Assembly: GCA_965235115.1 (NCBI GenBank)
Contig: OZ249436.1
Span: forward strand, 37,884,001 to 37,948,000
Reading direction: 5' to 3'
DNA from: Laetmonice hystrix
Taxonomy: Eukaryota
DNA: 64,000 nt
A program made the translations under genes and the position numbers. The notes under the pieces are model-generated. The model did not search any database. It had not been told where the DNA came from and worked only from the letters and a program-made list of their open reading frames with translations. Each line of letters opens with the position of its first letter. Positions within the stretch are counted from its first letter, which is position 1. This document shows positions 603 to 24,100 of this stretch, one piece after another.

Positions 603-668
603 CGCCCGATGAGGGACTCGAACCCGCGACCCTCAGATTAAAAGTCTGATGCTCTACCGACTGAGCTA
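603..668 (-). pseudogene. 5'-truncated tRNA-Lys(UUU), positions ~8-73, interrupted by a transposon end
   Basis: Revcomp reads TAGCTCAGTCGGTAGAGCATCAGACTTTTAATCTGAGGGTCGCGGGTTCGAGTCCCTCATCGGGCG, with D arm, anticodon stem TCAGA/TCTGA around TTT, T-loop, and a T4 terminator at 591-594. The 5' acceptor strand (GCCCGG..) is replaced by CCCCAGCT. Confidence 0.92.
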
Positions 669-749
669 AAGCTGGGGGATAAAGGACTGTACGAAAGGGG
701 GGAAAAGAGGGGGGAAAGGGGGCAAAAGGGAAGAGAGAAAAGGAACGAA

Positions 750-2835
750 ACTTGGTCAAATTCACCTCCACCCGACGCCTTACTTTGAGCCCTTTACGGC
801 CTGGAGGAACATCGGAGTGTAACCAGCCCCCCTTCCAGGATATAATGAAGGAGTGTGCCAAAAAAAGAAGTTGGCACAAAAAGTGTAAGGGGCCGAAAAA
901 GTGCCCCAAACTTGGCCTTTCCCGCCGATACTGTAGCCAATATAGGGATTCATCTCCACCCGACGCCTTGCTGTGAGCCCTTTCCGGCCTGGAGGAACAT
1001 CGGAGTGTAACCAGCCCCCCTTCCAGGACATAATAAAGGGGTGTGCGAAAAAGCAAGTTGGCACAAAAAGTGTAAGGCGCCGAAAAATTGCCCCAAACAT
1101 GGCCTTCTCCGCCGATACTGTAACCAGTATGGGGAAATTTACGTAAACCCGACCCTTTACTGTGAGCCCTTAACGGCCTGGAGGAACATCGGAGTGTAAC
1201 CAGTCCCCCTTCCAGGACATAATGAAGGGGTGTGCCAAAAAAGAAGTTTAAACAAAAAGTGTAAGGGGCAGAAAAATTATTCGAAACTTGGCCAAATTCA
1301 CCTTCACCCGACGCCTTACTATGAGTCCTTTATGGCCTGGAGGAACATCGGAGTGTAACCAGCCCCCCTTCCAGGACATAATGAAGGAGTGTGCCAAAAA
1401 GGAAGGTGGCACAAAAAGTGTAAGGGGCAGACAAATTGCCCCAAATTTGGCCTTTTCCGCCCATACTCTAAGCAATATGGGGAAAAATTTACCTAAACCC
1501 GATCCCTTACTATGAGCCCTTTACGGCCTGGAGGAACATCGGAGTGTAACCAGCCCCCCTTCCAGGACATAATGAAGAGGTGTGCCAAAAAAGAAGTTGG
1601 CACAAAAAGTGTAAGGGGCGGAAAAAGTGCCCCAAACTTGGCCTTCCCCGCCGATACTATAGCCAATATAGGGAAATTCACCTCCACCCGACGCCTTACT
1701 GTGAGCCCTTGACGGCCTAAAGAAACATCGGAGTGTAACCAGTCCCCCTTCCAAGACATAATGAAGGGGTGTGCGAAAAAGCAAGTTGGCACAAAAAGTG
1801 TAAGGCGCCGAAAAATTGCCCCAAACATGGCCTTCTCCGCCGATACTGTAACCAGTATGGGGAAATTTACGTAAACCCGACCCTTTACTGTAAGCCCTAG
1901 ACGGTCTGGAGGAACATCGGAGTGTAACCAGTCCCCCTTCCAGGACATAATGAAGGGGTGTGCCAAAAAAGAAGTTTAAACAAAAAGTGTAAGGAGCCAA
2001 AAGATTGCCCCAAACTTTGCCTTCTCCGCCCATACTATAACCAATATAGGGAAATTCACCTCCACCGGACGCCTTACTATGAGCCCTTTACGGCCTGGAG
2101 GAACATCGGAGTATAACTAGCCCCTTTTCCAGGACATAATAAAGGGGTGTACGGAAAAAGAAGTTGGCACAAAAAGTGTAAGGGGCCGAAAAATTGCCCC
2201 AAACTAGGCTTTCTCCGCCCATACTCTAAGCAATATGGGGAAATTTACCTTGACCCGACCCCTTACTATGAGCCCTTTACGGCCTGGAGGAACATCGGAG
2301 TGTAACCAGCCCCCCTTCCAGAACATGATGAAGGAGTGTGCCAAAAAGGAAGGTGGCACAAAAAGTGTAAGGGGCAGACAAATTGCCCCAAATTTGGCCT
2401 TTTCCGCCCATACTCTAAGCAATATGGGGAAAAATTTACCTAAACCCGATCCCTTACTATGAGCCCTTCACGGCCTGGAGGAACATCGGAGTGTAACCAG
2501 CCCCCCTTCCAGGACATAATGAAGAGGTGTGCCAAAAAAGAAGTTGGCACAAAAAGTGTAAGGGGCAGAAAAAGTGCCCCAAACTTGGCCTTCCCCGCCG
2601 ATACTATAGCCAATATAGGGAAATTCACCTCCACCCGACGCCTTACTGTGAGCCCTTGACGGCCTGAAGAAACATCGGAGTGTAACCAGCCCCCCTTCAA
2701 GGACATAATGAAGGGGTGTGCCAAAAAAGAAGTTGGCACAAAAAGTGTAAGGGGCAGAAAAATTGCTCCAAACTTGGCTTTCTCCGTTGATACTCTAACC
2801 AATATGCGGAAATTTACCTAAACCCCATCCTTTAA
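750..2835. repeat. ~189-bp subterminal tandem repeat, ~11 copies (left arm)
   Basis: The motif GGAGGAACATCGGAGTGTAACC recurs at 803, 991, 1180, 1339 (short unit), 1530, 1719, 1908, 2097, 2286 and onward. Confidence 0.95.
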
Positions 2836-2868
2836 TGTGGGTTTATAATCGTAAACAAAACACTTTAA

Positions 2869-3208
2869 AGGTGCTATTCGTGAACAAAAATTCAATTTTT
2901 TTATTTTTAATTTTGTTGACGTTTATGTGATCCCATCTATCATGGAAATAGGTTCACAACAAAGGAAATCAAAATTTTTCATGGATAACGGCACAAATGG
3001 GGCTCTCTCAGAAGGCCTGTGGAGACCCTGACACGCCCCACCATAGGAAATGGCTCTATCTCGGTGCGCACCGAGATAGGTTTCAAATGCTGCACACAAA
3101 CTAATAGAAGGTTTATCAGGCCAATGGTATCGGTAGGAATTTTTTCTAGTACTATGTGCACAATGTATGATAGGAGAAATGCCATTCTGTGCGAGACGAA
3201 TAGCACCT
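2869..3208. mobile_element. 340-bp TTAA MITE (Kolobok-type) nested in left arm
   Basis: TTAA|AGGTGCTATTCGT ... ACGAATAGCACCT|TTAA (perfect 13-bp TIR). Internal palindrome CTATCTCGGTGCGCACCGAGATAG. Confidence 0.85.
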
Positions 3209-3539
3209 TTAAGACCCTAGCCTAGATTGAAATCAGTATTTCTTTACTGTCTGTAATAGCTACCATTGTTTGAACTCTTCAAAGGATTTGAATCTGGGAT
3301 CGTTCGGGCAATACTTTTCCCATCTTATTTGACTGTGGCCTGACTCATTTCAATGTTAAACAAATGCATAAAGTAATTCTAAGAACATTTATTACTCAAA
3401 CTGTAACTTGTCACATACCAACAGTGTTGGAACAACCTCCGGCTACACACTTTGGCATTTCGCAGGCTGAGACATGATTGAAACATTTAAGATATCGACA
3501 GAAAAATATCACATGGATGTCACAGAGGGCCTTTGAGAC

Positions 3540-3735
3540 TGACGGAATGCAGCGAAACAAGAGGCCACACAGCGTAAAAATATTTAAGGAGCGACTCCGA
3601 CTTGACTGCAGAAAATTTTCATTCGCTTATAGAGTGTCTGACCCCTCGAACAGCATCACAGAACATATATTACACCATCAGTACAAGTTTTTGAATGAAG
3701 ACTAGATAAATATTGGAAGAATCACAACTTTATGT
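3540..3735 (+). mobile_element. Degenerate 3' end of a CR1/L2-type LINE ORF2 (mirrored at ~6075-6270)
   Basis: Translation HSVKIFKERLRLDCRKFSFAYRVSDPSNSITEH followed by a RLDKYW motif resembles the conserved CR1-group RT C-terminus (recognised from memory of the family pattern). Confidence 0.65.
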
Positions 3736-4561
3736 ACAACTTTAGAGCTCTCCCAACTCTTGATCATGTACAAACACTATTACTACCATCAAGTAGTTTT
3801 CAAATAATGAGCTGGCATAAGAGATCTTATATGTTTTGTTTCATCACACGATGGTTCTTGTGTATGCTGGGTGTAATCACCCCATAACTTAAACATAGCC
3901 ATATATTGGCAGCTTCCATATCGACCACACCACAAGGACTGTCAGCATCCACTACCTTAACCCCTAAATATAAACAATACAATCTCAGCATATGTCACTC
4001 CATCTTTAAAGTATTGTAGTTGTATACACAGAAATTCCACTTTCTTGTATACTCCAAGTATATTCCATCCATTATGTAATAACACCATCACTCCTTGAAG
4101 GTTTACATATAACTTATGCTTTGATTGTTTGTAATCTTTTCTTTGTAACACTTCCTCTGTCAAACCACCTATCCGCTTGGTCACATGACTTTAATATTAG
4201 TCATTGGCTACAATCTATCCTCCAACCAGGAACATGTACAATACAAGTATTTGAACGAAGACTAGATAAATATTGGAAGAATCACAACTTTATGTACAGT
4301 GAACCAAACACTTTTTTGCAAACTTAACATATGAACTCTGCCTTTGAGCTTTGCCTCTGCGTTTCAATCAAAAATCATGTTAGTCATGGCAGTGCACCCT
4401 ATTTAAATGGTTGAGGTAAACAAACAACTTTACAGAATTCAAGATGCCAACTCTTTGGCAAAATTTCAACACGGAAAATTCAGCCAAAGACAATGCTATG
4501 TGCTATTGCATTCAAAAAATGCTGCTTTGCTTTAATAACACATCAAAATTTCTGAGCTAAC

Positions 4562-4768
4562 CTTGTGATAACCACAGCTGCATACGACATCTCGACCAAA
4601 CAGATCTTTACTTTTTCCTTGGCCTGGACAGTTCTTGATTTTTTCATATTCTTGTCGCCACGTGCTGTTTTTCGGTGGTACCTGGCCACGGCGAACTTTA
4701 AATGTGCCATTGGCAAAGCCCTTGAGGCGCGTCAGCCATTCTTTCTCACTGGGTCCCTCTTTTGGCAT
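4562..4768 (-). CDS. Orphan first coding exon (69 aa), putative transposase N-terminus
   Basis: Acceptor tttgcag at 4788, 19-nt UTR, ATG at 4768, MPKEGPSEKEWLTRLKGFANG...WRQEYEKIKNCP...CSCGYHK, then donor AAG|GTTAG at 4561. A candidate upstream donor GAG|GTAAAC lies at 4898. No downstream exons are seen. Confidence 0.6.
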
Positions 4769-6603
4769 GATTGATGATATCCAGGATCTGCAAATATAGT
4801 CAGGAAATAAAAACTAATTCTCCTGTCTTCTTGAATTTTAATTCTTGAAATTTTGCCAAAGAGTTGGCATCTTGAATTCTGTAAAGTTGTTTGTTTACCT
4901 CAACCATTTAAATAGGGTGCACTGCCATGACTAACATGATTTTTGATTGAAACGCAGAGGCAAAGCTCAAAGGCAGAGTTCATATGTTAAGTTTGCAAAA
5001 AAGTGTTTGGTTCACTGTACATAAAGTTGTGATTCTTCCAATATTTATCTAGTCTTCGTTCAAATACTTGTATTGTACATGTTACTGGTTGGAGGATAGA
5101 TTGTAGCCAATGACTAATATTAAAGTCATGTGACCAAGCGGATAGGTGGTTTGACAGAGGAAGTGTTACAAAGAAAAGATTACAAACAATCAAAGCATAA
5201 GTTATATGTAAACCTTTAAGGAGTGATGGTGGTATTACATAATGGATGGAATATACTTGGAGTATACAAGAAAGTGGAATTTCTGTGTATACAACTACAA
5301 TACTTTAAAGATGGAGTGACATATGCTGAGATTGTATTGTTTATATTTAGGGGTTAAGGTAGTGGATGCTGACAGTCCTTGTGGTGTGGCCGATATATGG
5401 AAGCTGCCAATATATATATGGCTATGTTTAAGTTATGGGGTGATTACACCCAGCATATACACAAGAAACAGTCGTGTGATGAAACAAAACATATAAGATC
5501 TCTTATGCCAGCTCATTATTGGAAAACTTGATGGTAGTAATAGTGTTTGTACATGATTAAGAGTTGGGAGAGCTCTAAAGTTGTACATAAAGTTGTAATT
5601 GTAGCCAATGACTAATATTAAAGTCATGTGACCAAGCGGATAGGTGGTTTGACAGAGGAAGTGTTACAAAGAAAAGATTACAAACAATCAAAGCATAAGT
5701 TATATGTAAACCTTCAAGGAGTGATGGTGTTATTACATAATGGATGGAATATACTTGGAGTATACAAGAAAGTGGAATTTCTGTGTATACAACTACAATA
5801 CTTTAAAGATGGAGTGACATATGCTGAGATTGTATTGTTTATATTTAGGGGTTAAGGTAGTGGATGCTGACAGTCCTTGTGGTGTGGTCGATATGGAAGC
5901 TGCCAATATATGGCTATGTTTAAGTTATGGGGTGATTACACCCAGCATACACAAGGACCATCGTGTGATGAAACAAAACATATAAGATCTCTTATGCCAG
6001 CTCATTATTGGAAAACTACTTGATGGTAGTAATAGTGTTTGTACATGATCAAGAGTTGGGAGAGCTCTAAAGTTGTACATAAAGTTGTGATTCTTCCAAT
6101 ATTTATCTAGTCTTCATTCAAAAACTTGTACTGATGGTGTAATATATGTTCTGTGATGCTGTTCGAGGGGTCAGACACTCTATAAGCGAATGAAAATTTT
6201 CTGCAGTCAAGTCGGAGTCGCTCCTTAAATATTTTTACGCTGTGTGGCCTCTTGTTTCGCTGCATTCCGTCAGTCTCAAAGGCCCTCTGTGACATCCATG
6301 TGATATTTTTCTGTCGATATCTTAAATGTTTCAATCATGTCTCAGCCTGCGAAATGCCAAAGTGTGTAGCCGGAGGTTGTTCCAACACTGTTGGTATGTG
6401 ACAAGTTACAGTTTGAGTAATAAATGTTCTTAGAATTACTTTATGCATTTGTTTAACATTGAAATGAGTCAGGCCACAGTCAAATAAGATGGGAAAAGTA
6501 TTGCCCGAACGATCCCAGATTCAAATCCTTTGAAGAGTTCAAACAATGGTAGCTATTACAGACAGTAAAGAAATACTGATTTCAATCTAGGCTAGGGTCT
6601 TAA

Positions 6604-6943
6604 AGGTGCTATTCGTCTCGCACAGAATGGCATTTCTCCTATCATACATTGTGCACATAGTACTAGAAAAAATTCCTACCGATACCATTGGCCTGATAAA
6701 CCTTCTATTAGTTTGTGTGCAGCATTTGAAACCTATCTCGGTGCGCACCGAGATAGAGCCATTTCCTATGGTGGGGCGTGTCAGGGTCTCCACAGGCCTT
6801 CTGAGAGAGCCCCATTTGTGCCGTTATCCATGAAAAATTTTGATTTCCTTTGTTGTGAACCTATTTCCATGATAGATGGGATCACATAAACGTCAACAAA
6901 ATTAAAAATAAAAAAATTGAATTTTTGTTCACGAATAGCACCT
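6604..6943. mobile_element. 340-bp TTAA MITE nested in right arm (mirror of 2869-3208)
   Basis: TTAA at 6600-6603 and 6944-6947, same 13-bp TIR. Confidence 0.85.
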
Positions 6944-6974
6944 TTAAAGTGTTTTGTTTACGATTATAAACCCA

Positions 6975-8660
6975 CATTAAAGGATGGGGTTTAGGTAAAT
7001 TTCCGCATATTGGTTAGAGTATCAACGGAGAAAGCCAAGTTTGGAGCAATTTTTCTGCCCCTTACACTTTTTGTGCCAACTTCTTTTTTGGCACACCCCT
7101 TCATTATGTCCTTGAAGGGGGGCTGGTTACACTCCGATGTTCCTCCAGGCCGTCAAGGGCTCACAGTAAAGGGTCGGGCTTACGTAAATTTGCCCATTTT
7201 GGTTACAGTATCGGCGGAAAAGGCCAAGTTTCGGGCAATTTGTCTGCCCTTACACTTTTTGTGCCAACTTGCTTTTTCGCACATCCCTTTATTATGTCCT
7301 GGAAAAGGGGCTAGTTATACTCCGACGTTCCTCCAGGCCGTAAAGGGCTCATAGTAAGGCGTCCGGTGGAGGTGAATTTCCCTATATTGGTTATAGTATG
7401 GGCGGAGAAGGCAAAGTTTGGGGCAATTTTTTGGCTCCTTACACTTTTTGTTTAAACTTTCTTTTTGGCACACCCCTTAATTATGCCGTGGAAGGGGGAC
7501 TGGTTACACTCCGATGTTCCTCCAGGCCGTCAAGGGCTCACAGTAAAGGGTCGGGTTACAGTATCGGCGGAGAAGGCCATGTTTGGGGCAATTTTTCGGC
7601 GCCTTACAATTTTTGTGCCAACTTCCTTTTTCGCACACCCCTTCATTATGTCTTGGAAGGGGGACTGGTTACACTCCGATGTTTCTTCAGGCCGTCAAGG
7701 GCTCACAGTAAGGCGTCGGGTGGAGGTGAATTTCCCTATATTGGCTATAGTATCGGCGGGGAAGGCCAAGTTTGGGGCACTTTTTCTGCCCCTTACACTT
7801 TTTGTGCCAACTTCTTTTTTGGCACACCTCTTCATTATGTCCTGGAAGGGGGGCTGGTTACACTCCGATGTTCCTCCAGGCCGTAAAGGGCTCATAGTAA
7901 GGGATCGGGTTTAGGTAAATTTTTCCCCATATTGCTTAGAGTATGGGCGGAAAAGGCCAAATTTGGGGCAATTTGTCTGCCCCTTACACTTTTTGTGCCA
8001 CCTTCCTTTTTGGCACACTCCTTCATTATGTCCTGGAAGGGGGGCTGGTTACACTCCGATGTTCCTCCAGGCCATAAAGGACTCATAGTAAGGCGTCGGG
8101 TGAAGGTGAATTTGGCCAAGTTTCGAATAATTTTTCTGCCCCTTACACTTTTTGTTTAAACTTCTTTTTTGGCACACCCCTTCATTATGTCCTGGAAGGG
8201 GGACTGGTTACACTCCGATGTTCCTCCAGGCCGTTAAGGGCTCACAGTAAAGGGTCGGGTTTACGTAAATTTCCCCATACTGGTTACAGTATCGGCGGAG
8301 AAGGCCATGTTTGGGGCAATTTTTCGGCGCCTTACACTTTTTGTGCCAACTTGCTTTTTCGCACACCCCTTTATTATGTCCTGGAAGGGGGGCTGGTTAC
8401 ACTCCGATGTTCCTCCAGGCCGGAAAGGGCTCACAGCAAGGCGTCGGGTGGAGATGAATCCCTATATTGGCTACAGTATCGGCGGGAAAGGCCAAGTTTG
8501 GGGCACTTTTTCGGCCCCTTACACTTTTTGTGCCAACTTCTTTTTTTGGCACACTCCTTCATTATATCCTGGAAGGGGGGCTGGTTACACTCCGATGTTC
8601 CTCCAGGCCGTAAAGGGCTCAAAGTAAGGCGTCGGGTGGAGGTGAATTTGACCAAGTTTC
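6975..8660. repeat. ~189-bp subterminal tandem repeat, ~9 copies (right arm)
   Basis: Reverse complement of the 750-2835 array, about two units shorter. Confidence 0.95.
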
Positions 8661-8738
8661 GTTCCTTTTCTCTCTTCCCTTTTGCCCCCTTTCCCCCCTC
8701 TTTTCCCCCCTTTCGTACAGTCCTTTATCCCCCAGCTT

Positions 8739-8804
8739 TAGCCCAGTCGGTAGAGCATGGGACTCTTAATCCCAGGGTCGTGGGTTCGAGCCCCACATTG
8801 GGCG
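8739..8804 (+). pseudogene. 5'-truncated tRNA-Lys(CUU), positions ~8-73, interrupted by a transposon end
   Basis: TAGCCCAGTCGGTAGAGCATGGGACTCTTAATCCCAGGGTCGTGGGTTCGAGCCCCACATTGGGCG, with anticodon stem TGGGA/TCCCA around CTT and TTTT at 8809-8812. The 5' acceptor strand is missing and the D stem has one mismatch. Confidence 0.92.
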
Positions 8805-8966
8805 AATATTTTACTGTGCTGCTTCTACAAAGCATGGGAGGAATCACCTTGCAAGGACGCAATTCGATGAAAAGGGGTTGTTAGGGAATATGTAGCGATT
8901 TTCACTGAGGCAGCTTTCCATGTAGTCTATGACGAAGTTACTATGTGCAAGGATCCGTAGCTGTAA

Positions 8967-10230
8967 TTATCCCATCATCACGGAGGGGATGGGATTTTGA
9001 AATTGTAGTTGTTAACCGTTGTAAACACTATGTCATAACTCGGTTGTTTTTCCAGATATCTCAACCAAACTTGGTACGCAATCTGACCATGACGAAGTCT
9101 TTTCAGACACTGAGTCCTTACATCATGTGCGTCACGTCGTGACGTCAAATTTTTGGGACTTTGGTGGCCATTTTTAAAGTTCATATTGGGAATTTAGAAT
9201 ATCTATCATGGAGTTTTGATGAGGCAAGGGTCTTGCCTAAGACTAACCCTCCATTTGACCTTTGACCTTTGACCTGAGGGAGAACTGGGTCCTAGGTCGT
9301 AAATCGGTTAAATCACTACTCCTTCCTCATTTTTTGGTAAAATTTGACAATATTGGGCAGAAGGACTCTCCAACAAGAGCTCCTCAAAAGTTATTTAAGG
9401 GATAATCGATTTGACCTATTTTCGCTGAGTCACGTGACGCTGAATTTGTGAACAGTGCCTAGTTTAGATATTTATGGCTATAACTCGAAAATGAGGGCCA
9501 TAAAGGGCCATGTTTACTATTGTAGACAAATAGGAAGTCATATGTTCTTTCGTTTGGCACCATTTTTCTTAAGGATTTAGCCTATTTTCGCCGAACCACG
9601 TGACTTTGAAGTTTTGAAGTTGGGTCATTTGGAAGAGTCCTGGGTGTAACGCTTGAAAGATTTAAGACAAAGCCTTAATTGTTCATGAACTGTATAAAGG
9701 TGTATGTCCTCTTGGATTACATCATTGGCATCTTCCAAGGCTTCTAAGTTTTAAGCCATTCCAGAAAGAGCTATACTTAGCGCTCTATCCTTCGACACCA
9801 TTATTTTTTAGGTCTATAGCGTCAGAAGGATGTCTATGTTTTAGCATGGTTGGCGTTAGAGACATAGTTAATATTAAACACTAATAGGAAGTCATATATG
9901 ATCTTTCACTTGACAATTTTTACGTGACGTGACCCATTACTTCATAAGGTGTCATAGGTATTTTTCTCAGGGCTATAACTTGTAAATGGTAGAAGTTAGG
10001 GCTATAGTTACTCTTAAACACTAATAGGAAGATATACATGCTCTTTCATTTGAGACCAAGATTTATTACGTAGCCTGTCGTGCCACCTCATAATTACGTC
10101 ATTGACATCTTCTAAATCTTATAAGTCATTAACTGCACCAGATTGAAGCATAGTTTACCCTACTCAGAACATGTCATATATTACGTGACTCCCCGGGGAT
10201 GGGATCAATTGTCGCCACAACGTGTCTAGT
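8967..10230 (+). mobile_element. Non-autonomous Helentron/HINE-like element
   Basis: 5' ATCCCATC (8969) with nearby inverted GATGGGAT (8988), a second GATGGGAT at 10198, a short hairpin TTGT..ACAA, and a CTAG end in T-rich context. This is the DINE-1/HINE architecture. Confidence 0.6.
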
Positions 10231-11157
10231 TTCCTATTGTCCAACTGCTGATTCCAACTAGGAATTCATTGTCCGCACAGTCCAAAGGCCACACACACAC
10301 ACCCAGGCTCTGAGCGGACGGATGATGAAACTGGCAGAAAAAAATGGATGATCTGGAGATCTGGTAGAACTGAAGATGACGGCGGAGACCAAGTCGATGG
10401 TGATGCCATGGTGATATTCAATCGTTCAGAGCCGTCTGCACTATGTGAAAGTTCCCTCATTCTCAGAAGAGCGGTTCTCCTTGTAGGATATAAATGGTGA
10501 AGTCCAATAGTTGATATATATATGCTAGCTTGATAGCTTAGCTAACTCCTTGGAGTTCAAATAATATGCTAGTATATAGCAGAGTCCAAAGTGGACATAT
10601 GTTCACAGCTGAGTTGTCGATGGTTCCCTCTCCTGAATACTAGGCATGGGGAACATTAACCTTTATAACCCTGGGTGATTATTTAATTGGTCCAATGAAA
10701 CTGACCAATAGCTGGACCGGCTACAGTAAGGTTGTATATTTTTAATGAGTCGAGCACGTGCGGTGAGCGGTGGTAAAGTGACACTTGTAAGGTTCTAGAC
10801 ATATAGTGGCGGCTAGTGGGGCTAAATACAATAGAACCCAGCGCGAGGTAATACAAATAGCCTTGGGCCGAAGCCGGAAATCTTTACAATGGGTGTGGGT
10901 ATTAGCCGTTTTCATTTGGTAATCTTTGTAATCGTAGTTTTGAACTTTCAATCGCTGGTTTCGCAGTTTTGAAATTGTGTTTATCATTTTCGATAATTTT
11001 GTCTTTTCTGATTTGTACATGTAGTCCACTCTAAAAAATATCTAGTCTCTTTTTGACCAGATCGCCTGATCACTTTTTTAAAACTATAAACGTGTTATTT
11101 TGATGAGAAGTTCTATTACTTTTCACATGAATATAGGATCAAATTAGAATGGTGCAC

Positions 11158-11294
11158 GGACATTTGGGCCACGGACATATGGGCCACGGACGTTTTGGGC
11201 CACGAACCTGCAACGTAGGAGATTTTGGCCACGTGGTTACGGTTAGGGTGCAGGTGCAGGTTCGTGGCCCAAAACGTCCGTGGCCCAAATGTCC
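11158..11294. mobile_element. Small palindromic MITE-like element
   Basis: GGACGTTTTGGGCCACGAACCTGCA ... TGCAGGTTCGTGGCCCAAAACGTCCGTGGCCCAAATGTCC form inverted arms around GGTTACGGTTAGGG. Confidence 0.6.
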
Positions 11295-11634
11295 TGCAAT
11301 GTTCCTGTTAAATATTTTGACTAGGTATTTTTAAGTGTGTCGTTTTTGCTCTTGCAAACTTGTTTTAGCTTTTGAATACATCGGTTTCGATTTGTATAAA
11401 TTTGTGGTTTTTATTTTGTATTTTGTTTTTGGCCATTGAATTCATGGTTTTATGTTTGCGTTCGTCGCTTCTTATTTTGGATTTCTAGTTTTTAAAAATA
11501 TTTGTATTTGAGTTTGGCACTAACTGGCCACCATAGTTTGGCGGAACACAGTAAACGCATGCGCCGTAGGGCCTATACATAATATTTCACCAATGTATAT
11601 AATTTCACCAATGTGTAGTTTAAACAACATTACT

Positions 11635-11840
11635 CAGGACTGTAGCCAGGGGGTGTATGTAACCCCCCCCCCCCTTCATGCCAAAGAAAAAAATCATTAA
11701 TGGTCATCAATACATTATATGGTCATCAAAGATGTCCACCATACATGGCTTCACTCGCTATTTAGGGGCCTACACAATGCCTATAGGCCTATTATATCTG
11801 TACCCCCTCCCCCCTGTATCACCCCCTGGCTACAACCCTA
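11635..11840. mobile_element. Short MITE-like element
   Basis: Inverted termini TGTAGCCAGGGGG ... CCCCCTGGCTACA. Confidence 0.5.
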
Positions 11841-14800
11841 TAGGCTAGATCTAAGCCGAGGCCTAGATCTATGCCGCCCGTTGTAGGGAATGACCGTGCA
11901 CGGTCATTCCCCCTCCCAGGGCATAACTGACATATTTGTGAATCCGCCCAGGCTGCTTTAGAATTTAATTAGGGGTGCATGTTATACATAGGGCTTGAAA
12001 ATTATCACTTTTGACATGTCATTTCAGACTTATTTTGTGCTCTAAGATGCAGCAAATGCCACCAAATTGGCCTACACCTTAAATTTCAAATTTTCCGGCA
12101 TGCCCTGGACCCCCCATGTGCAACACCGCCATCCAGGGTAAGACGCCCCATTGATCATTGTCTATATCAAAGGATATGCCGAATTAAAACTGGTTAAAAA
12201 TAAAATTAAATGCTTGGGTCCGAAAATGGCGTTTTTAATTGGGCTAAGGTTTAGGCCTACTAGGCGCAGGGTGCCGAAATAGGCCTAGGCATACTTTGGA
12301 TTTTGTCCTGGGGGCTATAGATCTAGACCCCCCATTCCCAATATAACTTTTTAATAGGAAAAGGGGCCAAAGGCCCCCCTCAAAATTTCGGAGCCTCCCC
12401 CCAGTCTGGGCATGCACCTTAGACCCAACTAAAATTCAACATAACAGGTTGGAAGGCCCACATTCAAAAGAAACGAAAATAACAAAATTATAAAAAAGGG
12501 AATCTGCCAGGCTTTTATGGCTTGGATATAGGCCCCAAGTCCGGGGGTGGGGCAAGATGCCTCCAGTATGAGGAAAGACGCCCCTTTGTAATTTTATCCT
12601 AAATAATTATTTTTTAATGTTGTAAAAAGAATACAGCCAAAGCTTATTAGCAATGTGTAGATATGTTTCTTTACACCAAAGAACTACTTATCCTGATAAC
12701 ACGAGACGGCCTGGTAATGCTTTAATTTGACCCTTAAAGGGGTCTGACCCCAGCCTACTCTACGGTAGTTTGTATGTAGTTATATTACGGTATCAGTTTT
12801 TCTTTGACGGCAGGCAGTATGATCATAGATATTGACAAATAATTTGATTTTTAAATTATTTCAAAAAATTCACTAACATCATTCCATTTCATCTTAGAGA
12901 CTTAACTTGTATTCGATTTCTTTTGGTCTGCGCTTTCAGGATAGGGGCGTAGACAAGTGGTAAAATCTGGGGGGGCTATGGATGGTTGTTAACTTGAAGA
13001 CTGTGCTAGAAAACAACCTGGGGCACAAAGGTCTCTGCTGTCCTTTAAAAGTCATGACGATTAGGGTATAGGTATCGAAATTGAAAGTAGGGGAAGGGGG
13101 GGGGGCAAAAGGAATCAGGCGGTAAGAGGAACCACTCTGGTTAGTTCGAAATCTGACCGCCCCTGGCGCTCCTCTTGCCGTGTGTTAATACGTCATAAGT
13201 TTTTGCATTCATGCAGTAGAGGTTCAAGACTAACGTCCACGTAGCTTGAAATAAGGAGCAAAAGTACGTTTTTTTACCTCATTGCTAAAATTTCTGTAAT
13301 AAATTCACATCTCGAACAAAGATCACAGAAGAGTTACTGAAAGCTGTTGATTATGTGTGCGACGTTATAGAAGGTCTACTGAATTCATGAAATGAACTTA
13401 AACTGTTCTGATACGAGATTCCAAAAATAACTGTCAAAGGTCACTTGTGTAATCGACGTGGGTCGGGCAAAAGGAACCGGGCAAGTGGAACCATCACTGG
13501 GCATAGATCTATAGACCAGGGGCCTGTTTCTCCAAAGCGTCGTATCAGTTAGGCTATATACGCCATGCGTATCCTGTCGTTAGTGTTTCTCGACGGCTGC
13601 GCAAATTTGCGCCGTTGCGTAAATCAGGTCTGAATTTACGACGACCAGCGAGGTGACGTACGCAACCGATTCTGAGTGGTTTGTGGAAAGTGACCATTGA
13701 CCAGTGAAGCAGGAAAACATTGGGCAGGTTAAAAGACATGTATACTCAATAAAAGTCCAAATTATGGGTAGAAAAGTGCCAGCAGTAAACTTGATTTTAC
13801 TTTGATTTTCCTCAACATTGTAGCATCATTTGCTTCACTGAAAAACGATGAACATTATTTTTATAAATTTTACGTAATCGAACATAGACTGTACATAGAA
13901 CAGGAAAATGAGAAAGATATAAACTTAGATCTATCGCTTTTCTGATAACGACATTTGGTACCGTATTAATGAATTTGTATCATTTGAATGCACAATCGTA
14001 CCCCTAGTTTCACTATGGGCTACTCTTGCTCAAAATAATGAACAAACATCTTATATGTCAGAACATAGAACCTGTAACAGTTCTATGGTCAGAGACAATT
14101 CTTATGTTCATTTCTAATGTGTCCCTACCTCTGATTTACCCCAGAAAGATTATAGGCCTATGTTCATTATAGACATTTGTATTCATTGTCTGCTACCAGC
14201 ATTAAGTTAACAAACAATATAATCAAATCAATATAATCTCTTGAGTAACATTATGTTCTCCATTGATGGTGTTCCCCAGCTTTCGTTTGGGAAGTTGTTT
14301 TATCAATGAAGGCAGTACAGTCATAGGGGCAGAGTCGCTCATCACAGCGAACATAATATTATAAACTATACATAGAACAGGAAAATGAGATAGATAAACT
14401 TATAAACTTATCGCTTTACTGATAACTGATAACTGATAACGACATTTGGTACCGTTTTAATGAATTTGTATCATTTGTGTCAGTGTCAGCTTATTTGACT
14501 GTGTCTTTAACAACAAATAGGCCTATACAATCCCCAAAGTGGCCTGCCCTGTGATGGTTTAGCCAATCGGGAGCCAGCATTTTTATGTTGTATATCATTG
14601 GTCATTGACATTGGTCTTCTCTATAACATATAACTTTGGACTACACTTGGAAGTGAACTGGAATAAAGTTCATATAGTTGACCAGCGATGGCCGTATCGC
14701 TGAACTATAAACGTTCAGCGATGGTCGGCCGATGGTCGGCCGACGGACTATAGGCCTAAACCGGCCTTAAGAGTTTTACAGATTTCAAAATAGAATAACT

Positions 14801-15060: not shown

Positions 15061-15163
15061 CGGGTGTTTACAAGCAGCATCCCGAACACACAGGCAGGGA
15101 GGTAGGAAGAGCCTTCAAGAGGGGATTCATTACTGCCCCAACTCCCGACAGAAAGAAAACATA

Positions 15164-18100
15164 ATGAAGATCTATTTGTCGTTACTTGTAGTCGCGGTTA
15201 GTTGTACATGGTGCGTGCAGTGTAAGCCAGCCGACGCTACCTTCAATCAGGTGCTATTGTCACGTTCGCGGTCAGTGTCAGAGACAGAGCAGTTACTAGA
15301 GTTAGTTGACCTCATCAAGGCATTCAAGCCGAAAAAGCCAGTGTTCGAATCCAAGCTGACGAAGGGACCACACAAACATGTTACACATGACAAGGAACAT
15401 CAGAAAGACGACACTTGTGGCTATCAGGTAAACGTTGTGTGTGTCACATAATGTCTCCCCCCCCCCAACTTAAAGGGAGTCGTAAAATTCATTTTTTTCG
15501 ATTTATGGCAGTCTTAGAAACATATGATTCGCATACCTTGGACTCCCAGTAACATCATGTGAGACTGTTATGGCCCAGCGACCAGTATTTAGTAAGGAAA
15601 ATATGCCAAATCTCTCGCAAATACGTAGCTCAGAATTAGCGAGCGGCCCACAGTATATTTGAGTTGGCCGCGGTCGGGCGATGATGACGCGTGGTCACGT
15701 GACTTCCGGGTGTGGAAGGGAATCTCCCTCTAGTCTAGTGTTGACCTAAATACCGCATGTACACCCGTCACGTGATCACGCGTCATCATCGCCCGACCGC
15801 GGCCAACTCAAATATCCTGTGGGCCGCTCGCTAATTCTGAGCTACGTATTTGCGAGAGATTTGGCATATTTTCCTTACTAAATACTGGTCGCTGGGCCAT
15901 AACAGTCTCACATGATGTTACTGGGAGTCCAAGGTATGCGAATCATATGTTTCTAAGACTGCCAAAAATCGAAAAAAATGAATTTTACGACTCCCTTTAA
16001 GCCAAGGCCAAGCCAAATAAAAACTTAGAATCTATAATATGGATTATGATATCGGATAATCGGGCAGGGGCGGATCCGGGGCCAAGTTCATGAAGTTGGG
16101 AAGGGACAACACAAGGGACAGCAGTAATCTTGAGTTTAATCAAGTACATTACAACGGGCACGGCTAGGATACTATCTTTGATTTCTCTGCATGGTGTCCT
16201 GTATACCATATGTAGGCGGTCTGGCACTTAACAAAGTAACGATTACAAGTCAATAAAAAGAAGATAAAGAGATTCAGATCGAGTAGGGGATTAAAAGAAG
16301 TTAAAAACCATCATTAATTCTGTATTTTGAAATTAGACTGCGTACTTCATCCATCAGCGTATTGTTATACTTTACATTTGATATTTTGCAGACCTGTAAT
16401 CAGGGTAAGGCAAACATGCTGAATGTCCACCTTGTACCACATACACATGATGACGTCGGCTGGATTATGACTGTTGACCAGTATTACTACAAAGGTCTGT
16501 TAAACGTGAATAGTGAAATATTAAATCTTCCACAAGATTTGTGGACTCATAAATCTATGATTCAGTTGGTTAAACGATATCTGTTCTCTAGGCCAAAGCT
16601 GAAGTTATGTTTTACACTGTAGACAGGGCTGCTTGTATGATTTTGGGCATAATTCATACACATTTTCATTTAAGTTCTATTCAATGCTAAACCACATGGT
16701 TAGGAGGTCCCTACACTCACACTACACTTATTTATCCAATTAATTTGTTACTGCTGCAATTTTATATGTCATAATTATTTTCAAAACAAAATTGATTTTA
16801 CATGTTGATTCACATACACTTTAGATTCTGATTTCATGTGGAACTGTTTTTATTTTCATGTTTATAGAGGTACAGTACATCCTCGATAGTGCAATGGTTG
16901 AACTCAGCAAAAATTCCAAGCGTAGGTTCATTTATGTCGAGATGGCATTCTTCTATAGATGGTGGAATGAACAACATGACAGTATGCGACACGTCATCAA
17001 GAGACTAGTGAATGAAGGTGACATGATAATATTATGTATTACACACATTGATGTCTTTATGATGAATCCAGGCCTCGAATTAGAAGTTGAAAGGGGCACG
17101 GCAAAAACTGCTGTCGATACATAAGAATCAACGTCAGATTTTTCCAGGGCAAATTTACGATACAGGTATGGAAAAGGCATGATGGCAAATGCTGTCGATG
17201 CCGTCGTGTAATTCGAGGCCTGTGAACCTACAATGGTTGTAAAAAGAATAATGTATCATTGTTGCAGAAATAATACAACATCATCCTGCAGCCACCTTGA
17301 ATTTATCCTGGGTGGTTGGTAAGATTTAGTGTTAACCTATGATATGTTTTCATATTACAGGTCGCCTTGAGTTTATATTGGGAGGGTGGTGTATGAATGA
17401 TGAGGCATCGACTCATTACAACGCCATCATTGATCAACACACAACTGGCTTCAAGTTCATCAAGGATAACTTTGGCGAGTGTGGCCGGCCAAAGATCGGT
17501 TGGCAGATTGACCCTTTTGGACATTCACGGGAACAAGCTTCACTCTTTGCTCAAGTGTGTTCCAGGAGGGTTTTGTCTTTAAGAAGTTTGAAAAGTTTCT
17601 GTTATAATATATGCTCCTTTTACATGAATCAATTCTTTTATGTATGTTTTTGTCTTTGAAATTTGAAAATCATTTGTCTTAACAGCCAATTTTTGTAGCA
17701 AACACTAGATCACACTGTCAACTTTTTTCTCTCTTAAATGTAAATTTGCATATTGCTATATTCCTACTCAGTTTGGATTCGATGGTCTTTTTTTTGGACG
17801 CCTTGACTTCCAAGACAAAATAACTCGTCAGCACAGTAAGACCATGGAGATGCTGTGGAACGGAAGTCCCAACAACTTGGGTATGGTCGTAAATATAATT
17901 GAAGCATCAAAATCCCACTGATTTCATGTAACTCAAATACTTCTTTCTGCTTGGAAAATGAGAATGAGAAATGTGAAGGGTTACATGGCTGGTGTGTGGG
18001 GTTTGGTTTCCAGAAGGTGTTATAATTGTGTTACTAATTCTGATACAGGTGACCAGGGGGCACTGTTCACAGGAGTTAACTTCAATGGTTACTCACAGCC

Positions 18101-21100
18101 AAGTGGTTTCTGCTATGACATTTACTGCTCAGATTACATTCAGGTAAATTGGAATGAAAGTATAATCTATTCAATCATAATAGTACGAATGTTTGTGCCA
18201 CCACCCTTTACTAAAGGTACACTTGATATGAGTGTATTGTTATTGGTACAGTTACAATGGAGACACATAATAATGGATAATGAAGGATCACACTTTGTTG
18301 AACTTGAAGATATTTCAGGCTGTTATTATGTTTTCTAATCTTAGGATAATGATGATCTTGAGGACAATAACGTGGATGATAGAGTGAAGACTTTCATCAA
18401 ATCTGCCAAGGAGCAAGTAAGTCAGTGACAACTCGATCAAAGTGCATTCTCTGCTTGAAGACATGAGAGAAATTTGTCTACTAGTTCCAGTACCCTCATC
18501 ACGTGGATAAGAAAATATTTAAACACGTTAAATGCCTCATCCTAAACTTTGTGATTGTATTGTGGTTGTGTGCAGGCAGGTAGCTACAGCACCAATCATA
18601 TCATGATGACAATGGGAGGAGACTTCCAGTACCAGGCAGCACACAAAAACTTCAAAAACCTTGACAAACTGATTCAGTATGTCAATGCTGAGGTAAGAGT
18701 CCGATAACTAATACTCTTCTCTCTGTTAGAATATAGTTTGAATCCCGGTACATGTAGATCTTGTGAAGTGTTCAAAAACATTTAGGGATTCTTTGTACAG
18801 AATTTTAACTGTATGCATCCATTCTGCATGTGATTGTCTGAAAGATTAAAAAAAAAAAAATTTTTGTGGTAACAGTAGTATTTTTCAGAGACTAGTTCAA
18901 ATAGTTCTCGTCTGCATTATTATAATACACTGAGTTGTTTTTGTACAGCAAACAAAAGGAAGCAAACTGAAAATGTTTTACTCGACCCTGCCATGCTACC
19001 TATTATGTTATATAATGTGTTTATTATAACTTATTGTGTTATATAATATAATGCACCAAGTTATTTTTGTACAGCAAACAAAAGGAAGCAAAGTGAACGT
19101 GTTTTACTCGACGCCGTCATGCTACCTACACGCCCTCCACCAGACCAACCAGACATGGACCACCAAGTCGGATGATTTCTTCCCATACGCTCACCGTAAC
19201 CACACCTTCTGGACAGGATACTTCACAAGTCGGGCATCTCTCAAGGGATATGTCAGACAGGCTAATAATATCTTCCAGGTATTGTGCTGTCAATATGGCA
19301 TCATCCTACATTAGTAAACAGTACATGTTATTGTCAGACATTATTAGAAATATTAGAAGTCTTTTTATGATAATTTTATATTGTTTCAGGCATGTAAGCA
19401 GTTGGATACACTGACACAGCTTGAGGCAAAGTATGGCAGTGACCTCAAGATTGACATACTTCGTAAGTATAGATTGGCATGCTTTTTATAATGCATACAT
19501 TATATTCTGTGTCCAGTATTAGTCAGTGGAATTAACGAGGTCATATTATAATTCACCCTATAAGACCTATGACGCGTGATACACAGACATTGGAGGTTGT
19601 GTGCTTTAAAGTCCACTTGATTTGTTTCTCTCAGGGAGAGCCATGGGAGTGGCCCAACATCATGATGCCGTCAGGTAAGGACCTTTGTCAAATATGAAGG
19701 TTAAACATAAACCAATAATATTTGATGATCTGATATTGGGATTCAAAGAACCACGTAAAATCACTATTTATTCTAGAAGAACTAAACTAAGTAACAGTAT
19801 ATATTTTTCAAAAAGTAAGGTATTTCTGCCCATTATTTGTTGGAGTCTTTGCCCAAAAGTTTGATACTAAGGAGGGAAGTGTCTAAATAACTTTGTAATA
19901 TTGCATTTTATCTGGTGTTATAGTGGTACAGAGAAACAAGTTGTGGCTGATGACTACACAAAGAGACTCTCAGAGGGGGTCACTGCCTGCCAGGTTTGTG
20001 GTCACATAACCAAACCAAGAATACACATGTAACATTTTGGATTTTTAAAGTCTCAGATTTTAAATAAATAATGTGCGTGAATGGGTCTCATGTATAATCA
20101 GTTGATGTCTTTCTCATAGAAATACCGAGGATATGCAAATCTGTTCTAAATGAAAATGTTGTGGACAAGTGGTTAATTGTTTTGTAAGATCTGGTGATTT
20201 TTTCAGGACGTGATAAACTACGCGTATGGAAACCTTCTCCCCAAGGGAACGGGAGTTATTCCATCGCAGATCTTCTGTCCTCTTACAAACGTCACCTATT
20301 GTAACGTCACGGAGACTCATTCACAGGTAGACAACGTTAGGTGTTTGTGATAGTAATGGGTGTCATTCCGTCACAGATCTTCTGTCCTCTTACAAACATC
20401 ACCTATTGTAATGTCACAGAGACTCATTCACAGGTAGACAATGTTAGGTGTTTGTGATAGTAACTGGCGTCATTCCATCACAGATCTTCTGTCCTCTTAC
20501 AAACATCACGTATTGTAACGTCACAGAGACTCATTCACAGGTAGACAATGTTAGGTGTTTGTGATAGTAACTGGCGTCATTCCATCACAGATCTTCTGTC
20601 CTCTTAGGGCCCCTTAACACACACAGAGATTGTTGGGTGACCATTGAGCAATCAAAAATTGGCTCCATCTCTCAACGATCTCCTAAAGCCTCGAAAAAGC
20701 CGTTTCTGTGTAAATGTTTGGGAGATCCTAATGCGCTCGTTGTGCGATCAAAAATGCTTTTTTTCGCCAACTTTCATGGCGATCTATAGAGATCTTTGAG
20801 CGACCTTGGCGATCATTGAGTGCTCATTGAAAGATCCTTGAGATATCAATAGAGACTAGGCCTCCTACAGCGACCATTGAGAGTTTGCTGAGAGCTTGTT
20901 GTGCGACAAAGATCTACGGAGGTCCCTGAGAGACCAGGAGAGATCACTGAGAGACCAGGAGAGATCTCTGAGGGATCATTGAGAGTTCCATGGGCGACCA
21001 AGGAGGTTGCTGAGCTTCCCATCGCCGCGGCAATCTCCCCCCCCCCATCTCCCAATGAACGCTCAACAATCTCTTTAGTGGAAATTGATCACCCGATGAT

Positions 21101-24100
21101 CTCTCGGCGATCTCCAGCGCGGTCTTTCAATGAACTCTATTGGTCTTTCATCGCTCACTGATCTCTCAGCCATCTCTACCTTTGGAGGGGGGGGGGGAAT
21201 TGACATTCATTGAAAGATTGCTGAGAGATCATTGGGAAATCATTGAGTGCTCCCTGAGAGCTACTTGAAGGTTCGTTGAGGGTTCGTTGAGAGATCGCTT
21301 CTCTTGGCGATCGTTGACAGATTGTTTTGGACTGGTCAAAACTTTGAGAAGACTGTGGCAACCATGGAGATCACTGGAAGATCATTTAGAGCTCATTTAG
21401 AGATCTTGGCGATCACTGGGCACTATCTCCTTTGTTGAGAGATCTCGCCATTTCTTCATCGCTCAACGATCTCTCAATGATCGTCATCCCTGTGTGAAGG
21501 GGGTATTACAAACATCACGTATTGTAACGTCACAGAGACTCATCCCCAGGTAGACAATGTTAGGTGTTTGTGATAGTAACTGGTGTCATTCCATCACAGA
21601 TCTTCTGTCCTCTTACAAACGTCACCTATTGTAACATCACAGAGACTCATTCACAGGTAGACAATGTTAGGTGTTTGTGATAGTAACTGGCATCATTCCA
21701 TCACAGATTTTCTGTCCTCTTACAAACGTCACCTATTGTAACATCACAGAGACTCATTCACAGGTAGACAATGTTAGGTGTTTGTGATAGTAACTGGCAT
21801 CATTCCATCACAGATTTTCTGTCCTCTTATAAACGTCACCTGTTGTAACGTCACGGAGACTCATTCACAGGTAGACAATGTTAGGTGTTTGTGATAGTAA
21901 CCTGCATCATTCCATCACAGATCTTCTGTCCTCTTACAAACGTCACCTGTTGTAACGTCACAGAGACTCATTCACAGGTAGACAATGTTAGGTGTTTGTG
22001 ATAGTAACCTGCATCATTCCATCACAGATCTTCTGTCCTCTTACAAACGTCACCTGTTGTAACATCACAGAGACTCATTCACAGGTAGACAATGTTAGGT
22101 GTTTGTGATAGTAACTGGCATCATTCCATCACAGATTTTCTGTCCTCTTATAAACGTCACCTGTTGTAACGTCACGGAGACTCATTCACAGGTAGACAAT
22201 GTTAGGTGTTTGTGATAGTAACTGGCGTCATTCCATCACAGATCTTCTGTCCTCTTACAAACGTCACCTATTGTAACGTCACAGAGACTCATTCACAGGT
22301 AGACAATGTTAGGTGTTTGTGATAGTAACTGGCGTCATTCCATCACACATCTTCTGTCCTCTTACAAACGTCACCTATTGTAACGTCACGGAGACTCATT
22401 CACAGGTAGACAATGTTAGGTGTTTGTGATAGTAACTGGCGTCATTCCATCACAGATCTTCTGTCCTCTTACAAACATCACCTATTGTAACGTCACAGAG
22501 ACTCATTCACAGGTAGACAATGTTAGGTGTTTGTGATAGTAACTGGCATCATTCCATCACAGATCTTCTGTCCTCTTACAAACATCACCTATTGTAACGT
22601 CACAGAGACTCATTCACAGGTAGACAATGTTAGGTGTTTGTGATAGTAACTGGCGTCATTCCATCACAGATCTTCTGTCCTCTTACAAACATCACCTATT
22701 GTAACGTCACAGAGACTCATTCACAGGTAGACAATGTTAGGTGTTTGTGATAGTAACTGGCGTCATTCCATCACAGATCTTCCATCACTTATTGTAACGT
22801 CACAGAGACTCATTCACAGGGAGACACTGTTATAGATGATAGAAATATGATTTTTGGTTAAGCTGGTCATCCTATGTTATATTTCATACTGTGAAGACGA
22901 GGCAAAGCCAACCATTTCTTTGTTATGCTAGGTAGGTTACCTGTTGAACTTGAACCATCTGAAAGGTATCCTTGACATGTAATAAGATGATAGTGAAGGT
23001 GATAAGGAAAGAAACCCAAGCTGTGGATCTTCCAGAGTTCTTGGTGTAACTTGCCTCCCAAAACGTATAAACCAGAAGAAGACAAAACTCAGAGAAAATT
23101 AGAGGAAATTAACTATGATATAGTTGAGCTTTATGTAAGCAGGATTCTCTTCTGGCGCTTGGCAGTTCACTATACTGTGAGCACAAGTTATGTATGAGGA
23201 GGTTCAGCATTGTGTCATATGGATAATGTCAAATGTCATAAGTTGTGAATGAATTCTTGGTCAGGATTTATTATTTTCTGTCGACAGTTTACGGTAATCG
23301 TTTATAACCCAGTGGCCCGCCCTATGTCCCACTGGGTCCGGGTGCCCGTCACTGGCTCTGCCTACACTGTCATGGATGCTTCCTTGAAGACCGTCACTTC
23401 CGAGGTCAGTTTGAGAATAATCTATTTAATGATCTGTAGATTAAAACAATCAGTTTGAAAGTTCGTACTTAAATGTGTTCCCATAAGAGATTATTGATCA
23501 CGGAAATCCTGACGAGGATGGCCCTCAGAGTATAGTCCATCTGTTTGCCGCCAGGTGGTGCCCATAAGCCAGCAGACCAGAGATATTCCCGCCCACAGCG
23601 GAAGCAAGGCAACGGGAGAGCTGGTGTTTGGGGCGCCTCTGCCGGGGCTCGGCTACACCACCTTCTTTGTGACAGCCAAGAAAGGTATGTTTGTACAGCA
23701 GGGTCTACCTCCAGGTACCGGGCCAGGCCGACGTTGACGTTGTACTATATTTATAAGCGGTTTGGGAGGGTCCGAGGGTGGGGGTTGATAGGTTACCCTG
23801 AAATGGTTATGAGAGAGGCGAGATAGGAAGGTGCTGCAGGTAGCCTCATCAGTAGAACCTTGTTTCTGCTTACATAGTATGTATAGGTACAGTAATTATA
23901 GTTACGTGTTATTGTGTATTACACCAGGTAGTGCCCAGATATTGAAAGTTGAGAAACCAGCCGTAAACGAGGACACTGTCATTGAGAACCAGGTCAGTAG
24001 ATGTGTTACTACTCCTGTGTACTGTAACGTTCCTCAAACATTCATAGTACTTTGTAAGTTTTACGACGTCTCCCTAGAACAAGAGCTGGCGAACAGTATT

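Follow-up and report, generated by a model that had tools for sequence, protein, structure and literature searches.

Two back-to-back 3' halves of a Dada DNA transposon join two tRNA-Lys gene fragments in Laetmonice hystrix

The stretch analysed here (the window) comprises 64,000 nucleotides (nt) of Laetmonice hystrix contig OZ249436.1 (assembly GCA_965235115.1, positions 37,884,001 to 37,948,000), and close to its left end two tRNA-Lys fragments enclose a single palindrome of 8,070 nt (669-8738) that is built from two 3' halves, placed back to back, which belong to one Dada DNA transposon family. A preliminary description of this DNA had seen the outer ends of the structure, as one element terminus joined to tRNA-Lys(UUU) and to tRNA-Lys(CUU) at the same nucleotide, and made no mention of the palindrome between them. 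Both palindrome termini are the element's 3' end, CCCCAGCTT, located at tRNA nt 8, and no 5' end was present in the window. A 41-nt pattern spanning the junction (the element end followed by tRNA nt 8-27) matched the window exactly twice, at 649-689 (minus strand) and 8718-8758 (plus strand), and two matches were obtained in 0 of 100 shuffled sequences, in good agreement with the junctions as described. The distinct 3' flanks, T4 runs and lost 5' acceptor strands reported for the two tRNAs were likewise all found in the sequence: the 3' flanks are unlike each other, each has a TTTT run, and nt 1-7, which read GCCCGGT in the intact Lys genes of this genome, are absent from both fragments. ARAGORN called the right tRNA-Lys only, with an acceptor stem made from borrowed element bases. 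Both tRNA-Lys genes of the window are dead, at little cost because the genome holds 103 intact Lys gene starts (at most one mismatch; 627 Mb in 35 contigs were searched, and genome-wide counts are lower bounds). The coordinates of all features are collected in Table 1.

Table 1. Features of the palindrome locus (window positions) and copies of the element with both ends elsewhere in the genome (contig positions).
Feature	Position	Strand	Remarks
tRNA-Lys(UUU) nt 8-73, pseudogene fragment without nt 1-7	603..668	-	hexamer TAGCTC at 663-668
Left arm: 3' part of a non-autonomous Dada copy, beginning shortly before coding exon 1 and running to CCCCAGCTT	669..4805	-	96-98% identical to C2, C12 and C3 copies
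189-bp tandem repeat array in the element's 3' region, left arm	758..2825	-	also in C2, C12 and C3 copies
340-bp insertion, TTAA flanks, short terminal inverted repeats	2869..3208		not in C2, C12 or C3
Last transposase exon remnant, end of C-terminal zinc-finger region, left arm	3263..3346	-	86% amino acid identity to C19 copy, 28 residues
First coding exon of Dada transposase, left arm only	4562..4768	-	93-100% identical at 6 genome places
Palindrome centre: strand switch, 19-nt inverted remnant at 4807-4825, then short locally copied snippets	4806..4844		
Right arm: 3' part of sister Dada copy	4845..8738	+	internal ~500-bp direct duplication
Last transposase exon remnant, right arm	6466..6549	+	
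Right-arm counterpart of the 340-bp insertion	6604..6943		2 differences from left-arm insertion
189-bp repeat array, right arm	6973..8647	+	7100-7640 colinear with C3 copy, unlike left arm
tRNA-Lys(CUU) nt 8-73	8739..8804	+	variant hexamer TAGCCC at 8739-8744
Right flank	8805..11093	+	8805-10231 matches tRNA-Lys array unit; most array units diverge at 10231
Copy with both ends in one tRNA-Lys-CUU gene	C2:4671495-4678985		7,491 nt; TAGCTC both sides
Copy with both ends in one tRNA-Thr gene	C12:24063850-24074473		TAGCTC both sides
Copy with both ends in one tRNA-Phe gene	C3:7590468-7598544		TAGCTC (plus one C) 5', TAGCCC 3'

Between the two arms we counted 4 differences in 1185 bases for the outer parts, 2 in 1502 for the middle parts and 8 in 565 for the inner parts, and the last ~830 nt of the arms are identical. 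Three private substitutions and the TTAA-flanked 340-bp insertion, which we take to be Kolobok-like, are common to both arms and absent from the C2, C12 and C3 copies; 23 of 26 arm-shared alignment columns were dropped because they fall in misaligned blocks next to the insertion and next to the duplication. The two arms descend from one recent ancestor. Their 189-bp arrays hold 10 and 8 whole units, respectively, and the arms also differ by a 498-bp indel. The ~500-bp direct duplication occurs in the right arm, C2 and C12, and is missing from the left arm and C3. Beyond the centre, the right arm resumes ~310 nt further on than the left arm, and exon 1 lies in that missing stretch.

The terminal 82 nt of the element, used as a query against the genome, gave at least 10 matches, and 8 of 10 abut tRNA nt 8, with two junctions each in Lys-UUU, Lys-CUU and Phe-GAA genes and one each in Thr-UGU and Thr-CGU genes. 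The two matches with non-tRNA flanks are diverged copies (82-83%). A junction-pattern search of the genome returned eight matches, seven at known junctions and one, at C10:27363782, by chance; neither element nor tRNA is present there, and it was left out of the junction counts. Lys genes thus make up 4 of 8 tRNA junctions, two of them belonging to the window palindrome, and the other four are Phe (2) and Thr (2), so that the proposed specificity for tRNA-Lys has to be abandoned. These junctions show the target to be the A-box sequence TAGCTCAGT and not a Lys isoacceptor, because Lys, Thr and Phe genes are used alike; the three share TAGCTCAGT and differ after it, and recognition of primary sequence therefore fits. 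Other parts of the preliminary description fared better. It had placed the site in the A box, as found here (nt 8-13, TAGCTC), and had treated the tRNA as target rather than cargo, in agreement with the five tRNA types that adjoin the terminus with their own flanks and with the C2, C12 and C3 copies inside single tRNA genes. It had also suggested tabulating the flanks of the terminus, which yielded the eight of ten junctions above, and searching for the opposite element end beside 5' tRNA halves and for a target-site duplication; in C2, C12 and C3, tRNA nt 1-7 plus TAGCTC stand directly 5' of the element and TAGCTC is the duplicated sequence. The C3 copy is surrounded by a tandem Phe array and the C12 copy by a tandem Thr array. 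At the 3' junctions the hexamer is TAGCCC in 2 of 8, and one altered junction starts with GATAGC. These three copies and the window arms are non-autonomous, of their coding exons the first and a fragment of the last are kept, whereas the C19 copy, which starts in Phe-type sequence after TAGCTC, retains the middle exons with stops and frameshifts. Exact 5' ends in the genome number five, of which four follow tRNA nt 1-13.

Several further copies were observed. A lone 3' end bordering the Phe array (G000:C3:7612700-7614628) carries the GATAGC-type altered junction; the array itself (G000:C3:7.57-7.61 Mb) has a unit of ~880 bp, in which each intact gene is immediately preceded by a truncated, degenerate Phe copy, and in four units the truncated and intact copies are fused. 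At G000:C1:42759851-42760898 a copy in tRNA-Lys(UUU) is cut down to ~1 kb of 3' end, and tRNA nt 1-7 abut satellite there. A short copy at G000:C30:10950613-10952646 has a non-tRNA 5' flank and a tRNA-Thr(CGU) 3' flank. Diverged relatives of the 5' end (76-88%) without tRNA flanks were located on contigs C1, C3, C7 and C30, and in one diverged relative (L042) a 3'-like end directly precedes the 5'-like end.

The element is almost certainly a member of the Dada superfamily. Dada is defined in the original reports (PMC3706591, PMC8869645) by a DDE transposase with a DxxH motif, duplications of 6-7 bp, the lack of terminal inverted repeats and insertion at fixed positions in genes for small RNAs. 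In the C19 copy the catalytic residues D, D, DxxH and E could all be aligned to fish homologues (motifs KLDAT, YLDRNCC, LDI*H, with a stop in place of W, and SLESFH; the copy has stops and frameshifts), and the exon before the catalytic exon encodes DUF6729 (E=2.9e-58), a domain that the fish homologues also have. A search with the catalytic exon gave 15 longer proteins, all from cypriniform fish by name, with 51-68% identity. The transposase is spread over several exons, and the N-terminal CCCC and C-terminal CCHC zinc fingers of Dada are represented by C..C and C....C pairs in the DUF6729 exon and by C..C...H...C in the last exon. The duplication is 6 bp, TAGCTC in C2 and C12 and TAGCTC/TAGCCC in C3; the outermost 70 nt at either end of the C2 copy show no complementarity to each other; and the site is fixed in multicopy small-RNA genes, with 8 of 10 3' termini at tRNA nt 8. 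A Pfam search with exon 1 and the catalytic exon gave no match, and an ESM Atlas search returned only unnamed eukaryotic clusters with a low recognition score. The earlier assignment to Dada is hence upheld by both-ended copies with a TAGCTC duplication and non-inverted ends, a D-D-DxxH-E transposase and a 3' end like that of fish Dada-tK/tY. Judged by its sequence, the element falls in the A-box group of fish Dada-tK/tY/tN/tL type, as both marks of that clade, the 3' end CCCCAGCTT and insertion at nt 8-13, are present. Further Dada-like transposase exons with 37-61% identity were noted at G000:C21:10.82-10.84 Mb, C20:7.09 and 13.33 Mb, C3:6.65 Mb and C8:30.64 Mb; these probably represent additional families with other targets.

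The closest known systems include Dada-tK, reported from the three fish Fundulus, Larimichthys and Labrus (Kojima 2022, PMC8869645), which like Dada-tY inserts at nt 8-13, TAGCTC. All three fish Dada-tK 3' ends consist of a pyrimidine tract, TACAG and CCCCAGCTT, one being deposited with three more bases (PMC8869645), and the element studied here shares this 3' end, the TAGCTC target at nt 8-13 of tRNA-Lys and GCCAATC repeats near the 5' end. Hand translation of the published Dada-tK_LaBe sequence gave first-exon, catalytic and C-terminal zinc-finger motifs that agree by eye, and the first coding exon resembles the N-terminus of fish Dada-tK. The family studied here differs from Dada-tK in its invertebrate host, its additional Thr and Phe targets and the 189-bp satellite in its 3' region; neither PMC3706591 nor PMC8869645 describes a 3'-to-3' fusion. 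According to PMC8869645 (Fig. S2), goldfish Dada-tY_CaAu uses the same site, ends in CCCAGCTT, hits tRNA-Phe besides its main target and often has its junction hexamer replaced, but it is directed mainly at Tyr genes, and the replacing hexamer is TGGCGG, compared with TAGCCC and the GATAGC type here. Carry-over of the donor hexamer has been described for Dada-tA and Dada-tY (PMC8869645). Dada-tL_DR forms chimeric insertions with flanks from two different genes, explained by one-ended transposition (Kojima and Jurka 2013, PMC3706591); the C30 copy of this genome is of that sort, but those chimeras retain a 5' and a 3' end, whereas the window joins two 3' ends without a 5' end. Dada-tI/tY/tG_PMar of Perkinsus marinus occupy the same A-box position, with TAGCTC in three families, but they belong to a protist, are intronless and are reported as not close to the fish lineages, whereas the element here has introns (PMC3706591). 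In these two papers (PMC3706591, PMC8869645), A-box-targeting families come from fish and Perkinsus only, only Dada-U6 spans animal phyla, and Thr is not among the listed targets. Our literature search, outside which lie most subscription journals and Repbase Reports, so that a deposited consensus is possible, showed no other reports on tRNA-targeting Dada among the papers listed. The suggestion of an undescribed family therefore holds in part: the invertebrate host is new, while the kind of element is not, Lys-targeting Dada-tK having been published in three fish (PMC8869645). Relative to the published descriptions, as far as accessible, the host group, the Thr targets and the 3'-to-3' fusion are new; the element kind, the site and Lys targeting are already published.

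The flanks of the palindrome differ in character. The 3' flank of the left tRNA-Lys(UUU) fragment occurs once in the genome; a search with the left flank was dominated by a common repeat, with 40 of 503 candidates scored. The right flank to 11093 is 99.6% common with one Lys array unit at G000:C1:71033840-71036194 (window 8739-11093 compared). In that unit the standard second half is swapped for 862 bp identical to window 10232-11093, and the unit rejoins standard array sequence at a 3-nt overlap. DNA has passed, in one direction or the other, between the window locus and an array 33 Mb away. Position 11093/11094 was rejected as the end of a captured array piece, as a dispersed repeat crosses 11093 and the divergence of most units already lies at 10231. 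On the same contig, the native Lys genes are arrayed as divergent UUU/CUU pairs with 409 bp between the two genes, an arrangement that the window's UUU(-)/CUU(+) matches.

As to the origin of the palindrome, we lean towards two 3' junctions made by transposase, followed by loss of the centre. The Dada DDE transposase would recognise the primary sequence TAGCTCAG plus downstream bases; it inserts at tRNA nt 8-13 in the orientation of the gene and duplicates 6 bp. The 3' end of one recent lineage bearing the miniature inverted-repeat transposable element would have been joined twice, to tRNA-Lys(UUU) and to an opposite-facing tRNA-Lys(CUU), perhaps through a short-range transposition from one gene of a divergent pair into the other or through one-ended joining, and two copies in inverted orientation would have resulted. 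An almost symmetrical loss at exon 1 may then have removed the 5' halves together with the 5' ends of both tRNAs and any spacer, and recent common descent together with arm-to-arm conversion could have kept the arms alike. Loss of the 5' halves is suggested because the assembly has no spare 5' end: a search for an unaccounted one gave five exact matches, all belonging to other copies. A reciprocal product with the two missing 5' halves was not found, a single one-mismatch match on C6 being at control level, and an inversion involving the window and the Lys array located at C1:42.76 Mb was ruled out, the copy there having its own tRNA nt 1-7 and being itself an internally deleted insertion. The competing explanation needs a single transposition, into a solitary tRNA-Lys(UUU) gene: after a break near exon 1 and fold-back, the 3' half would have been copied in reverse, synthesis would have switched into an array CUU gene at the 20 nt shared by the Lys isoacceptors, and after ~1.5 kb of array DNA had been copied, local DNA would have been rejoined at 10232. 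We rate this as less probable, although much of the locus suits it: the near-identical arms, a centre of fold-back type, the unique left flank, and a right flank that follows most array units no further than 10231 before local sequence takes over, the dispersed repeat continuing across 11093. Three points speak against it. A fold-back predicts TAGCTC on the right, where the hexamer is the C3-type TAGCCC, found only at the right-arm and C3 junctions and, among fetched loci, in 0 of 44 Lys A-box reads (Lys loci overlap) and 0 of 39 uninserted Phe genes. The C3-like satellite tract is confined to the right arm, where 7100-7640 is closer to C3 (16 mismatches) than to the left arm (35 mismatches) and contains 63 25-mers found only in C3. 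A switch by homology should moreover favour the many UUU genes, which would match over all 66 nt. Because of the C3-like hexamer and satellite tract, two transposase-made junctions seem somewhat likelier, and the UUU(-)/CUU(+) orientation is that of native Lys pairs. A number of observations weigh the other way. The shared 340-bp insertion, the three private substitutions and the identical last ~830 nt are directly explained by fold-back of a single copy; the 19-nt inverted remnant and the copied snippets give the centre the look of a template switch; and the left tRNA's 3' flank is not array flank, so that the simple version, a native pair hit twice, needs further rearrangement. The left arm, too, has 14 25-mers found only in C3 and like C3 lacks the 500-bp duplication, and the ancestry signals are therefore mosaic; satellite units also turn over rapidly, and no empty allele was seen in contigs from three runs of one sample over 8810-12500, mostly repeats. 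The near-symmetric centre itself fits both explanations. Of the "two independent targeting events" proposed initially, unrelated insertions are thus out, since the arms share the private 340-bp insertion and differ at only 4/1185 and 2/1502 positions; the idea of two junctions survives, favoured by the other features named above.

Two explanations of another kind are much weaker. That the palindrome is an assembly artefact, from a fold-back read or a misjoin of two loci, is very improbable. Long inverted and tandem repeats are difficult to assemble, and the sole contig across 11093 has just 24 bases to the right of it, under the 31-base standard; however, the arms differ in unit number (10 versus 8), by the 498-bp indel, in substitutions and in flanks, unlike the product expected of a simple fold-back read, a new sequence adjacency with copied snippets is present at the centre, and contigs over 10986-11117 agreed without any difference in all three runs of one sample. 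The read evidence consists of contigs from these three runs over 8810-12500, which are dominated by repeats, and the sample may be the source of the assembly. Even less credible is one fold-back element with long terminal inverted repeats, or a tRNA fragment that is part of the element. The window on its own does show 4-kb inverted arms, but in both-ended copies the 5' and 3' ends are unlike and the element sits inside a single tRNA gene with nt 1-7 upstream, five tRNA types with their own flanks abut the terminus, and no second palindromic copy occurs among the 10 terminus matches. The C2, C12 and C3 copies already refute this reading, short of additional copies that have two 3' ends.

What the window records is a real, recently mobile A-box-type Dada family in an invertebrate, represented there by a 3'-to-3' fusion that is dead. 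Few DNA transposons have targets of such strict sequence as Dada, which has been proposed for targeted gene delivery (PMC3706591). The family extends the record to an invertebrate, with the 3' end conserved, and to tRNA-Thr as a target, its Lys, Thr and Phe junctions form a natural test of specificity, and TAGCCC at two 3' junctions bears on why Dada junction hexamers get "replaced". A more far-reaching view, which we regard as rather doubtful, is that a Dada 3' end acts alone, carrying its hexamer, that two such ends can join two tRNA genes and so rearrange tRNA-array DNA, and that the lineage is as old as bilaterians or has moved between phyla. If so, a solitary Lys(UUU) locus would have been linked with a Lys array unit, whose closest copy is 33 Mb away, with 862 bp exchanged, and the presence of the CCCCAGCTT end and the A-box site in both a spiralian and teleosts would imply a target lineage of bilaterian age or transfer between phyla. 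The palindrome is a single dead locus and mainly a hint that Dada ends rearrange tRNA clusters.

The palindrome lies between two genes, with exons of a SPRY plus SOCS-box gene on its left (locus L036 4618-5904) and exons of a lysosomal alpha-mannosidase (GH38) gene on its right (window 15160-24515). An alpha-mannosidase exon had 82-91% identity to annelid, mollusc, nemertean and rotifer proteins, the closest among the 120 matches listed, and 76-80% to the vertebrate proteins among them. The tRNA-Phe of this genome is unlike the fish tRNA-Phe sequence shown in the PMC8869645 supplement. A spiralian host is likely from these comparisons, a single exon being too little to fix the phylum. Elsewhere in the window there are long minisatellites with 19-, 62- and 46-bp units (34248-38400, 60593-62637 and 26177-27483) and a short telomere-like GGGTTA tract (33629-33690).

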